Shown: in pieces, positions 3,686 to 64,000 of the stretch
Layout: each line of letters begins with the position of its first letter
Position numbering within the stretch: the stretch's first letter is position 1
Assembly (NCBI GenBank): GCA_964445325.1
Contig: CAYUKN010000002.1
Span: 10,794 to 74,793, forward strand
DNA: 64,000 nucleotides
Direction: 5' to 3'
Source of the DNA: an uncultured Ectothiorhodospiraceae bacterium
GTDB taxonomy: Bacteria; Pseudomonadota; Gammaproteobacteria; XJ16; Halofilaceae
Notes under the pieces: generated by a model
Databases searched by the model: none
What the model was told of the DNA's origin: nothing
The model's input: the letters and a program-made list of their open reading frames with translations, nothing else
Program-made: the position numbers and the translations under genes

Positions 3686-4291
3686 TTACGCCGGCCGCCA
3701 GTCGGACGTGCGCTGGAACAGCGGATCGATATCGAAGCCGCGCAGCAGATGGATGGTCTCGAACAGGGGCAATCCGACGACGTTGGAGTAGCTACCCATG
3801 AGCGCCTCGACGAAGACCGCGCCCAGACCCTGGATCGCGTAAGCACCCGCCTTGCCCGCAGGCTCGCCGCTCGACCAGTAGGCGCGGCGCTCATCGGCTG
3901 TCGTCGGGCGCAACGTCACCTCGGAGCGGACCACGCGCGTGTCGCTTTGCGCGCCGACAACGACGGCGACACCGGTGCACACCGTGTGGCTGCGCCCGGA
4001 CAAGTGCGCCAACGTCGCCACGGCATCGGCCTCGCCGGCTGGCTTGCCCAGGATGTCGCCATCGGCGCTGACCGCGGTATCCGCGCCCAGCGCCACGTCA
4101 CCGGGGCTCGCTTGCTCGGCCCCAGCCGCGGCCTTGGTCAGCGCGAGGCGCTCGACATAGTGGCCCGGGGCCTCGCCGGGCATGCGTGTCTCGTCGATGT
4201 CGACCGGGCGCAACTCGAAGGCCAGCCCCACTTGTGCCAACAACTCGCGCCGGCGGGGTGATTGGGAGGCGAGGATCAGCGTCGGTGTCAA
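3686..4291 (-). CDS. maf: Maf family nucleoside triphosphate pyrophosphatase (YhdE-like)
   Basis: [30 protein letters not shown]; TTG start overlaps the rlmH stop (TTGA). Confidence 0.92.
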
Positions 4292-11567: not shown

Positions 11568-11642
11568 GGGCGGTTAGCTCAGCGGGAGAGCGCTGCCTTC
11601 ACACGGCAGAGGTCGCTGGTTCGATCCCAGCACCGCCCACCA
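11568..11642 (+). tRNA. tRNA-Val (anticodon CAC)
   Basis: 75-nt cloverleaf: GGGCGGT/ACCGCCC acceptor stem, GCTC/GAGC D stem, CTGCC-TTCACAC-GGCAG anticodon arm, GCTGG-TTCGATC-CCAGC T arm, encoded CCA. Confidence 0.97.
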
Positions 11643-61877: not shown

Positions 61878-62921
61878 GTGACGAGCAACCCGGACGAGCG
61901 CGAGCGCGCACGGCAGCGGCGCCACGCGGTGTCGGCAATCGCCGCCCTGGCCGCCTCGCTGGTGCTCGCCGCTTGCGTGAGCGACGCCCCCGAGGAGGCG
62001 ACGCAAGCGCCACCCCATGAGGGTCAGCAATTACTCGAACGCGGGGTTCGCTCATACGAGCGCCGTGACTACGAGGCAGCGGCAACCGACTTCACGCAGG
62101 CGCTTGCCTATTTCCGCAGCTACGACCTCGCCGACGGCGTGGTGCGCAGCCGAATCAACCTAGCGCGTATCGAGCTCGATCTCGGCCGCCCCGAGGCAGC
62201 ACACGATCACCTGGCCGCCGCCCGCGCGAACGCGGACCGGGCGCAAGATGGCGACTGGTCCGCCCGGTTGGACCTGCTCGACAGCTCCGTGGCGATCGAG
62301 CTGGGCGAGCTAGAGCGTGCCGTGCAACACATCGAACCCCACCTGCCCGACTTTGGCGACGATGCTCGCGTCGCCGGCAGTGCCGGCACGCTCTCGTCGG
62401 AGCAGCTGAGCTTTGTCGCCAACCGCGTCGCGGTGGCATTCGAGCGCGGCGACGGCGATCGACGGCAATGGCTGGCCCGCCTGCGCAATGCCCTGGCGGC
62501 GCAGGATGCGGCGAGCCCCTTGCTCGAAGGTCGGCTCGAGCGCTTTCGTGCCCGCCTCGCGGCGGACGACGGCGACGAGCGGCTTGCGCTGGAACGGCTC
62601 GACCAGGCCGTGCGCCACTACCAACGGGCGCGCCACCGTGCCGGCATTGCCGCCGCACTGGAACAATCGGCCGGCATCCATGCCAACCGGGGCGAACACG
62701 AGCGCGCGCGTAACCATCTCGATCGCGCGCTCTATCTCCATCTATCGGTGCGCAACGCGCGAGCGACACGCGCGAATCTCGACAAACGCTTGGCCTGGAT
62801 CGAACCCCAGTCGAGTCGCCGGATGGCGTTGCGCGCCTGGATGGAACGGCTGACCACGCCCGAGGGGGTCGACTGGAGTGCCCTGCGCGATGCGGTGATC
62901 GAAGAACCGGTCCGCCGCTAG
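61878..62921 (+). CDS. TPR-repeat lipoprotein
   Basis: Lipobox LAAC; repeated helical TPR-like units (AATDFTQALAYF, ALERLDQAVRHY); GTG start 61878. Confidence 0.8.
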   Translation: MTSNPDERERARQRRHAVSAIAALAASLVLAACVSDAPEEATQAPPHEGQQLLERGVRSYERRDYEAAATDFTQALAYFRSYDLADGVVRSRINLARIELDLGRPEAAHDHLAAARANADRAQDGDWSARLDLLDSSVAIELGELERAVQHIEPHLPDFGDDARVAGSAGTLSSEQLSFVANRVAVAFERGDGDRRQWLARLRNALAAQDAASPLLEGRLERFRARLAADDGDERLALERLDQAVRHYQRARHRAGIAAALEQSAGIHANRGEHERARNHLDRALYLHLSVRNARATRANLDKRLAWIEPQSSRRMALRAWMERLTTPEGVDWSALRDAVIEEPVRR

Positions 62922-62972: not shown

Positions 62973-63397
62973 TCACCGCGGCACCGGGCCCGCTGCCTCG
63001 AGGCTCACCGCGAGTCCGGCTGCATGCTGCAGCGCTCGCGGGCAAGCTATCGGGATGGCTGGTGCCCGGACTCGAGCAGGTGCTGCTTCGGCATCGGCCG
63101 CGAACAGCTCAGCCGGCTCGTCGGCGGCGGGTTCGCGCGACAGGGGCTGACCCGCGCGCTCGCTGAAGATCGCGTGATAGCGCTGGAGCGACTCCTCGTC
63201 ACAGGCGTGCAACTCCCGGATCGCGCCCTTGGCCGTGTACGGGCTGCAGCCGACGTGCACCAGCACGTGCTCGCCCAGATACAGCCCGGCGGGGACGTCT
63301 CGCGCACCGCGGTCTTCACACCCGCATCCATCAGGCACGCGGCGTGCTGGCGGTCGCGTGCCCGCGCGAAAACGCCCGAGTCGCAGAGCAACGTCAT
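62973..63397 (-). pseudogene. Possible frameshifted small gene with a HypC/HupF-like motif
   Basis: Coding-like GC3 switches frame at the G4 run 63291-63294; the joined reading gives ...DAGVKTAVRETSPAGLYLGEHVLVHVGC...DEESL. Confidence 0.3.
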
Positions 63398-63637
63398 GGC
63401 GCACCTGCTCCCAGGCGAAGGGGTGCACGCCCAACACGGGGCGGCGGTGCCTATGGGCGCGGTCGCACCCCGTCAATGGCCCGGATGCCTGCGCCGCATG
63501 TGCCTCGGTCGGCACACACGTCGGCGCACGCGCCGGCCCCGGGGCGGCGGACGAGACCGCGCCCGGCCGCCACCCAAGCCCCGCCACGCCAATGACGCTG
63601 GATGCGCAATCTGCGCGCAGCACCACGCACCTGATCA

Positions 63638-63674
63638 ATAGCTCCAAACTATCGATAAGACGATCAATTTCAAT
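63638..63674 (+). promoter_or_regulatory. OxyR-type binding box
   Basis: ATAG-ctccaaa-CTAT-N7-ACGA-N7-CAAT; the first half matches ATAGntnnnanCTAT exactly. Confidence 0.6.
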
Positions 63675-63709
63675 TGGATTGATCGCAAAGCACCGGTTAG
63701 GCTGACTGT

Positions 63710-63847
63710 TGTCGGAGCTGGCGGGTCGTTTCGGCCCGGACAGCCGCCCCCACACCCGCCACCCGACGTCCGAGCGCGAACAGCTCCTCCCCCTAGGCGA
63801 GCCCGGCTCGCCGGTTTCGGCGGTGCCCCTTGGGCACCGCTTTTTTT
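63710..63847 (+). ncRNA. Candidate structured small RNA (OxyS-like)
   Basis: TAGGCT -10 at 63698, several stems, C-rich tracts, ends in an intrinsic terminator; no convincing + strand ORF. Confidence 0.5.
63820..63847 (+). terminator. Rho-independent terminator
   Basis: GCGGTGCCC-CTT-GGGCACCGC followed by T7. Confidence 0.9.
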
Positions 63848-63853
63848 CCGCAT

Positions 63854-63868
63854 TGGCATGCAGCGTGC
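63854..63868 (+). promoter_or_regulatory. Candidate sigma54 promoter
   Basis: TGGCATGCAGCGTGC, GG-N10-GC, upstream of ATG 63985. Confidence 0.55.
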
Positions 63869-63984
63869 ACACCGAGTCGACTGAACACATTTCATAGGTG
63901 CGTGTTGCCACCGATGTGACGCCGATTGGCAACTGATGCCACTTTAGGGCAGTTTCGGGGTGCGCGGACCGAAGGGGAAAGACG

Positions 63985-64000
63985 ATGTCGATGATGCTTT
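63985..64000 (+). CDS. Probable start of a gene running off the right edge
   Basis: AAGGGG RBS then ATG TCG ATG ATG CTT; too short to identify. Confidence 0.35.

Follow-up and report, generated by a model that had tools for sequence, protein, structure and literature searches.

An intergenic stretch of the plus strand in a sediment-metagenome contig very probably constitutes a genuine small RNA (sRNA) gene, and it credibly represents a new sRNA family whose mechanistic kind is known, that of base-pairing sRNAs with an anti-Shine-Dalgarno (anti-SD) motif. The promoter, seed, hairpins and terminator of this element are conserved, coding potential is lacking, and the element is absent from Rfam; transcription itself, the start site, the targets, the chaperone dependence and the regulator are what we infer from these sequence features. 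Among the explanations weighed below, an activator-dependent, trans-acting anti-SD sRNA is probably the best overall.

Anatomy of the candidate sRNA gene

The window, by which we mean the whole stretch of 64,000 nucleotides (nt) analyzed here, has a G+C content of about 70%, and its end is overrun by the Logan contig L001. The candidate lies between the mla operon and a gene that starts at 63985 and encodes a protein of 254 amino acids (aa), followed by PGPGW, YgaP-like and argG genes. Its parts and neighbors, numbered from the first letter of the window, are as follows.

Ending at 62921, plus strand: mlaE-mlaD-TPR lipoprotein operon, the upstream neighbor of the sRNA candidate.
63047-63397, minus strand: kefB remnant, with an ATG at 63397 and about 10 codons (MTLLCDSGVF); the transporter domain is nearly all lost.
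63087-63293, minus strand: KefB_C part, frameshifted; it shares 71% identity with the protein of L002 (E = 8e-31).
63638-63674, no strand assigned: OxyR-type (LysR-type) box with the tetramers ATAG (63638-63641), CTAT (63649-63652), ACGA (63660-63663) and CAAT (63671-63674); it abuts the −35 element.
63674-63680, plus strand: −35-like element, TTGGAT (63674-63679) or TGGATT (63675-63680), within the conserved block ATTGGATnAATCG.
63698-63703, plus strand: −10 hexamer TAGGCT, of the family pattern TAnnnT.
63709-63783, plus strand: variable 5′ domain, a long imperfect hairpin that holds a nonconserved C-rich tract.
63784-63794, plus strand: invariant anti-SD-like seed CUCCUCCCCCU in the linker between helices.
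63796-63812, plus strand: hairpin 1, GGCGAGC-CCG-GCUCGCC, with an invariant GGCGA/UCGCC stem.
63819-63847, plus strand: Rho-independent terminator with a 10-bp stem, a 3-nt loop and U7, called by a terminator scan.
63853-63869, plus strand: sigma54-type promoter TTGGCATGCAGCGTGCA, a neighbor of the RNA that belongs to the downstream gene.

All features that an earlier, sequence-only reading of this DNA had listed were found again. The box tetramers CTAT, ACGA and CAAT are separated by N7 spacing, and the poor −35 element is followed by TAGGCT at 63698, a promoter that stayed below the threshold of a consensus promoter scan because its −10 hexamer is too weak. The 5′ end of the RNA would fall at about 63709-63711. 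The terminator with its T7, described in that reading as well, was called independently by the terminator scan, with a stem at 63819-63841 (10 pairs, 8 of them G-C) and the T-run at 63841-63847. The segments GGAGCTG (63714-63720) and CAGCTCC (63781-63787) form a candidate long-range stem, the hairpin CGGGTCG-TTT-CGGCCCG is present, CTCCTCCCC occupies 63784-63792, and the C-rich tract spans 63744-63764. The predicted fold of 63705-63848 was more stable than that of shuffled sequences (z = −3.2). Allowing one mismatch, CTCCTCCCCC was not enriched within the 64-kb window; the weight of this motif therefore rests on its conservation and not on window counts. A perfect 8-bp inverted repeat, CGATCAAT-N9-ATTGATCG, with GATC sites, was also observed at 63661-63685, overlapping the −35 region; it was rejected as a family feature, being confined to the window and missing in the homologs.

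Conservation among homologous loci

Contigs carrying members of the downstream-protein clusters were fetched, and their loci were compared with the window. Four distinct metagenome or MAG loci beyond the window carry the element: L003, L002 (whose contig bears the title "uncultured Ectothiorhodospiraceae bacterium"), L008 and L009. L004 and L005 are identical to L003 and were counted with it as one locus, and L007 is cut off. The most distant locus, L006, has retained a kefB remnant and the downstream gene with its sigma54 promoter but lacks the box, the promoter, the seed and the T-run; its stretch CGGCTCTCAGCCCCCGGCGGCGACC, within positions 3740-3865, may be what is left of the 3′ end of the sRNA after decay.

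The same ordered module precedes the same gene for the 254-aa protein in five loci, the protein itself being only 54-71% identical. The promoter of the family is of a weak sigma70 type (TTGnAT, 17-18 nt, TAnnnT): in the homologs the −35 element reads TTGGAT, TTTGAT/TTGATC or TTGAAT and stands 17-18 nt from the −10 hexamer, which is TAGGCT, TAGGCT, TATCGT and TACCAT in four loci, L002 being degenerate in its promoter. The 5′ domain, 58-90 nt long, differs in sequence and length from locus to locus and gave no alignable consensus among the five loci, although each homolog still folds as a long 5′ hairpin. While the promoter hexamers and the box hold a fixed spacing, the distance from the −10 hexamer to the seed varies between 58 and 90 nt. 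CTCCTCCCC is identical in all five loci and is followed by (C)T, so that the RNA family carries an invariant and mostly unpaired CUCCUCCCC(C)U. The GGCGA..UCGCC stem of hairpin 1 is invariant around a loop of 5-8 nt, a 6-nt linker leads to the terminator, and the terminator has a loop of 3-5 nt and a run of T5-T9, which occurs on the plus-strand side only. Column identity reached 79% in the 3′ module versus 61-63% in the surrounding region and wider alignments.

Two of the elements to which the sequence-only reading had given a function did not survive this comparison. The long-range stem GGAGCUG/CAGCUCC is absent from the homologs, and so is the C-rich tract at 63744-63764, which in the predicted fold is base-paired as the 3′ arm of the 5′ hairpin. 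The unit as such, read as a discrete, noncoding, terminator-ended transcript of about 140 nt, fared better: the sequence supports it as a putative RNA whose promoter, seed and 3′ hairpins are kept in five loci.

Predicted structure and accessibility of the seed

The two 3′ helices were examined in the alignment of the five sequences. Their stem cells were paired in 94% of cases versus 34-54% with slid partners, and the value for the terminator stem was 96%. The terminator contained two compensatory pairs (U-A to C-G and C-G to U-A), both contributed by L009. With five sequences the covariation was weak, 58 of 500 shuffles matching the observed score; it is consistent with the structure and statistically not decisive.

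RNAalifold recovered the same two helices and left the seed unpaired. In the predicted folds the mean probability of being unpaired was 0.56-0.93 for the seed versus 0.38-0.46 for the whole RNA, and the seed lay in an inter-helix linker in all five folds as well as in the consensus fold. The anti-SD motif pointed out by the earlier reading is accordingly the most conserved and a mostly unpaired part of the predicted RNA. The element is not a 3′ UTR, since no plus-strand gene lies upstream of it in any locus. A look-up of RNA-seq data with the window sequence returned no run carrying it. Collectively, the element presents the generic traits of a trans-acting sRNA, namely, a conserved promoter and terminator of its own, a noncoding sequence and a conserved, accessible seed.

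Relation to known RNA families and proposed mode of action

No Rfam family covered the element at the gathering score, and its family is unnamed; the sole match at that score anywhere in the window was a tRNA gene at 11568-11639 (plus strand). At E values of up to 10, only subthreshold matches were returned (suhB/MmgR, isrB, sbrA, SorY, che1 and, on the wrong strand, CcsR1). The SuhB/MmgR model RF00519, whose gathering score is 41 bits, was the best Rfam match for the window (15.7 bits) and for L009 (30.0 bits); in L008 it scored 23.3 bits. Its alignment was driven by the terminator and by C-rich stretches and was not collinear, the seed being placed on the first stem-loop (SL1) of MmgR; we therefore take the match as a resemblance and not as membership.

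In its design, the new RNA most resembles the alphaproteobacterial AbcR/SuhB RNAs. AbcR1/AbcR2 (alpha-r15) and SuhB/MmgR (alpha-r8, RF00519, clan CL00108) are sRNAs of approximately 77-120 nt from Alphaproteobacteria, and they share with the candidate stem-loops, an intrinsic terminator and CU-rich anti-SD motifs in unpaired regions, as judged here from the predicted fold. The aSD1 motif of AbcR, CUCCUCCC, is an exact 8-mer contained in the motif of the candidate, and the position of aSD2 between SL1 and SL2 matches that of the candidate's seed between its helices. Both aSD motifs of AbcR1/2 were shown genetically to repress translation at ribosome-binding sites (PMC8844928), and transcription of AbcR1 needs LsrB, a redox-sensing LysR-type regulator with two cysteines (PMC8844928, PMC7143759). 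Unlike AbcR, the candidate has a single aSD copy, belongs to a gammaproteobacterial (Ectothiorhodospiraceae-like) metagenome-assembled host and is not located beside its putative regulator.

The sequence-only reading had cast the element as an analogue of OxyS and had drawn a parallel to the cuckoo/CcsR RNAs. With OxyS (RF00035, Enterobacteriaceae) it shares a length of about 110-140 nt, an OxyR-like arrangement of four tetramers that adjoins a weak −35 element, a stand-alone gene and an intrinsic terminator, and the candidate would likewise pair near ribosome-binding sites. Kinship is nevertheless not borne out: the OxyS covariance model gave no match at E values of up to 10 in the window region or the four homologous loci, and whereas OxyS is divergent from the adjacent oxyR gene with a shared site, the candidate lies 21 kb away from oxyR and its seed differs. 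The Cuckoo/CcsR/alpha-r14 (NfeR1) RNAs resemble it in their CCUCCUCCC-like anti-SD motif; members of this group are stress induced and repress translation through occlusion of the ribosome-binding site (PMC4615179, PMC7143759). The cuckoo family is defined by two to four adjacent hairpins, each with CCUCCUCCC in its loop (PMC4615179), whereas the candidate carries one motif per RNA, in an inter-helix linker. CcsR RNAs are moreover cotranscribed with a small open reading frame (ORF) from an RpoHI/HII promoter, unlike the candidate, and the CcsR1 model reached 13.6 of the required 65.3 bits, and this on the opposite strand. Membership of the candidate in this family is not supported.

The mechanism that we propose is the following. 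The sRNA would be transcribed independently, with a length of about 139 nt here (approximately 63709-63847, plus strand) and of about 120-150 nt in the family. A weak sigma70-type promoter would start transcription, probably needing an activator at the LysR/OxyR-type box upstream of the −35 element, and the strong intrinsic terminator would stop the RNA 5 nt before the next gene's sigma54 promoter begins. The transcript would comprise a fast-evolving 5′ hairpin, the CUCCUCCCC(C)U motif, which is invariant and for the most part single-stranded, a small conserved hairpin, and the terminator with its U-tail. The CU-rich seed would pair in trans with the G-rich SD regions (GGGGGAGGAG-like) of target mRNAs, and this pairing would block ribosome binding, as has been shown for AbcR1/2 and NfeR1 with their CUCCUCCC motifs. 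By analogy with these RNAs, we lean toward occlusion of the ribosome-binding site by the CU-rich seed as its mode of action. Within the 64-kb window, complements of the seed occurred at chance level, and no target emerged there.

Distribution of the family

GTDB genomes and JGI metagenomes were scanned with the pattern CTCCTCCCC-N2-3-GGCGA-N3-14-TCGCC-N6-GGCGG. One true match was returned, L013, with L013 and L002 being one and the same contig; the scan was not exhaustive, as the known JGI loci L003/L004 were missed. Eleven other matches lay in unrelated contexts, had neither terminator nor T-run and were discarded. R1, a covariance model for the 3′ module, found no second copy in the 64-kb window or in any fetched locus, and a homolog search with the KefB N terminus (including L023-L025) led to different neighbor contexts and no sRNA. 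The family therefore appears to be narrow (five loci), single-copy and tied to the gene for the 254-aa protein. If transcribed as predicted, it would represent a new sRNA family in poorly studied, uncultured high-GC gammaproteobacteria. Its practical value is limited, the hosts being known from metagenomes only and the family being confined to five loci.

A candidate LysR-type box upstream of the promoter

In enterobacteria, OxyS is activated by OxyR, whose half-site is ATAG-N7-CTAT; the generic LysR box is T-N11-A. As the earlier reading had it, the window contains an OxyR-like box with two weaker tetramers at N7 spacing. It matched ATAG-N7-CTAT-N7-ATAG-N7-CTAT at 12 of 16 positions, ranking first among the approximately 64,000 positions of the window, with P = 0.003 when the local 100 nt were shuffled, and the exact ATAG-N7-CTAT (63638-63652) occurs once in the window versus 0.07 expected. 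Near-matches to this half-site at 2473 and 2722 were dismissed as chance, both lying inside an RNase E/G-like coding sequence.

When the 100 nt upstream of the −10 hexamer of each locus were searched with the four-tetramer consensus, the best match fell, in all five loci, at the homologous place, where it extends up to the −35 element. The scores out of 16 against this consensus, with their shuffle P values, were 12 in the window (0.003), 10 in L003 (0.08), 9 in L002 (0.09), 13 in L008 (0.0002) and 11 in L009 (0.03), the five sites being homologous, hence not independent. Tetramers 2 and 4 (CTAT-type) are well conserved and tetramers 1 and 3 poorly. In L006, where the sRNA is absent too, the best box score was 8 of 16; since this locus lacks both and yet keeps the sigma54 promoter, the box travels with the sRNA. 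Validated OxyR sites of Pseudomonas aeruginosa match the consensus at 12-13 of 16 positions, and most of the sites predicted from the consensus in that species are unconfirmed as OxyR controlled (PMC5720770).

The oxyR gene of the window (42483-43424) is unlinked to the sRNA candidate, being 21 kb away. Its product carries the two cysteines that the earlier reading had noted, 9 residues apart (a Cys-x8-Cys pair in HCFRDQVLAAC, C199/C208-like), and in NCBIfam it matched OxyR best, with 253 bits, which falls short of the equivalog cutoff (329). The region upstream of oxyR (42355-42482) contains no OxyR-consensus site of at least 10/16. The gene is divergent from a 2-hydroxy-3-oxopropionate-reductase-like gene and is followed by corA.

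The earlier interpretation is supported in part; within it, control of the sRNA by OxyR is no more than suggested. The box has the position typical of OxyR, scores 9-13/16 in the homologs and disappears together with the sRNA, but two of its tetramers are poorly conserved. Judging from these sequence matches, OxyR as the activator of the sRNA is plausible, if less likely than not, and some LysR-type activator at the box is somewhat more likely than OxyR itself. Motifs for Fur, FNR, LexA, sigma32, sigma54 and ECF factors were looked for by eye in the promoter alignment, and none fits across the homologs.

The strongest rival explanation accepts the sRNA as real and assigns the box to another LysR-type or an unrelated regulator, or to an ancestral role in the kefB/kefC-like K+ efflux system; the RNA would then answer another signal, for instance, electrophiles, the glutathione status or nitrogen via the sigma54 unit. 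We take this to be a serious contender, if still short of probable. The drift of tetramers 1 and 3 beside well-conserved tetramers 2 and 4, the unlinked oxyR gene at 21 kb, the rarity with which consensus OxyR predictions are confirmed (PMC5720770) and the presence of a divergent kefB-like gene or remnant 130-240 nt away in all loci speak for it. Against this, ATAG-N7-CTAT fits the OxyR half-site and not the generic T-N11-A, the four-tetramer register is best at the same place in five loci and reaches 13/16 in L008, and the box is intact although the window kefB is dead and was lost with the sRNA in L006 despite the kefB remnant there.

The most far-reaching version of the activator-dependent sRNA would be an OxyR-activated gammaproteobacterial family, the first beyond enteric OxyS, that converged on the alphaproteobacterial LsrB-to-AbcR1 design, in which a redox-sensing LysR regulator drives a CUCCUCCC anti-SD RNA damping translation at G-rich ribosome-binding sites; we consider this version unlikely. 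If the OxyR link were true, a redox-sensing regulator of the LysR type would have been wired to an anti-SD RNA outside the enterics and alphaproteobacteria as well, which would support translational throttling by SD mimicry as a recurrent oxidative-stress strategy. In this reading, the gene has an electrophile-defense (kefB/kefC) locus and a sigma54-controlled membrane protein as its neighbors.

The divergent kefB/kefC-like neighbor

GC3 periodicity revealed minus-strand coding with frame changes between the mla operon and the element. In related loci the divergent gene begins with MTLLHE.. and contains Na_H_Exchanger and KefB_C domains, by which it is identified as a KefB/KefC-type, glutathione-gated K+ efflux protein. 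The window copy is a pseudogene, given that only the first ten or so codons and a frameshifted KefB_C part remain. Similar kefB remnants are seen in L003 and L006, and intact or longer forms, divergent from the sRNA, in L002, L008 and L009; in all loci the gene or its remnant is divergent and 130-240 nt from the box. The decay of this neighbor implies that the box is not kept for the divergent gene alone, a possibility that the sequence-only reading had raised against itself: in the window, the box is intact beside a dead kefB.

The public assembly annotates a 205-aa plus-strand ORF at 63024-63641. We rejected it because the GC3 pattern and homology assign the region to the minus-strand kefB remnant and noncoding DNA, and the gene call is probably spurious. 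Many KefB N-terminal homologs (P0008-P0127) are short (170-280 aa), some of them on contigs of hundreds of kilobases, and one of 234 aa (P0057) has a partial Na_H_Exchanger joined directly to KefB_C. These short Kef homologs may represent a miniature Kef family or recurrent gene decay.

The downstream gene and its sigma54 promoter

The next gene has, as had been proposed, its own sigma54-type promoter. The site TGGCATGCAGCGTGCA at 63854-63869 is kept in all six loci that cover it (window, L002, L003, L006, L008 and L009), reads TTGGCAYGCAnCSTGCA, near the consensus, and starts 5-17 nt past the T-run (5 nt in the window) and 132-139 nt upstream of the start codon for the 254-aa protein. No enhancer-binding-protein site was identified for it.

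This arrangement bears on a second rival, in which the element is a cis-acting leader: transcription would be attenuated at the terminator, with conditional read-through into the downstream gene, and the anti-SD motif would sequester the SD of that gene. The synteny with the downstream gene is strict, the terminator ends just 5-17 nt from the promoter of that gene, and the downstream SDs (AAGGGGA, AGGAGG and AGGGGG) are G-rich and complementary to the seed. However, that complementarity is generic (5-6 bp), about 190 nt separate the seed from the SD, the terminator, with 10 bp and U7, is a strong one, and no aptamer-like 5′ domain is conserved. Since the sigma54 promoter intervenes in every locus and persists in L006 without the RNA, and since no anti-terminator pairing is conserved, a leader is less likely than a trans-acting sRNA, and we judge it improbable.

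It is more improbable still that the GC-rich palindromes act as DNA, binding the enhancer-binding protein of the sigma54 promoter, with the T-run incidental or an insulator. Both hairpins are indeed palindromic and lie 30-70 bp upstream of that promoter, a type that depends on an activator site farther upstream, and the sequence of their stems is conserved beyond what compensation requires. Yet the variable loops (5-8 nt and 3-5 nt) shift the half-site spacing, the T5-T9 run is conserved in one orientation and the invariant CU-rich motif has no dyad symmetry, which makes a purely DNA-level role unlikely; besides, a promoter is conserved 60-90 nt upstream at a variable distance, and L006 kept its sigma54 promoter without the palindromes.

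A small protein-coding gene on either strand is hardly credible: the window does contain ORFs at 63709-63897 (plus strand, 62 aa) and 63635-63895 (minus strand, 86 aa), and the reverse complement of the seed, AGGGGGAGGAG, would be a perfect SD on the minus strand, but indels of 1-3 nt in loops and linkers and of 20-30 nt in the 5′ domain break every frame among the homologs, so that no ORF is conserved on either strand, in agreement with the lack of a credible ORF noted earlier, while the window minus strand has no start codon at SD distance, the terminator faces the plus strand, and 63690-63850 shows no GC3 signal fitting one frame.

The 254-aa protein (P0001, L001 6577-7341) has an N-terminal membrane helix and a disordered acidic linker and matched no Pfam or NCBIfam family; among 5.8 billion proteins, just six clusters besides its own were found. 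Its conserved core, approximately residues 85-195, was predicted with a pLDDT of 70-84, and the best fold matches of the core in the PDB were Cas4/PD-(D/E)xK nucleases, weakly (E value of 6e-3, TM of 0.26). The 5′ UTR of the gene contains a conserved block at 63916-63952 (GTGAC..CGA-TTGGCA-N5-TGCCA...TTTAnGGCA), which was excluded by its spacing as a second sigma54 promoter. Within this block, a palindrome at 63926-63941, perfect (7+7) in L002, is situated downstream of the sigma54 promoter and upstream of the SD; it may serve as an operator or form an RNA hairpin.
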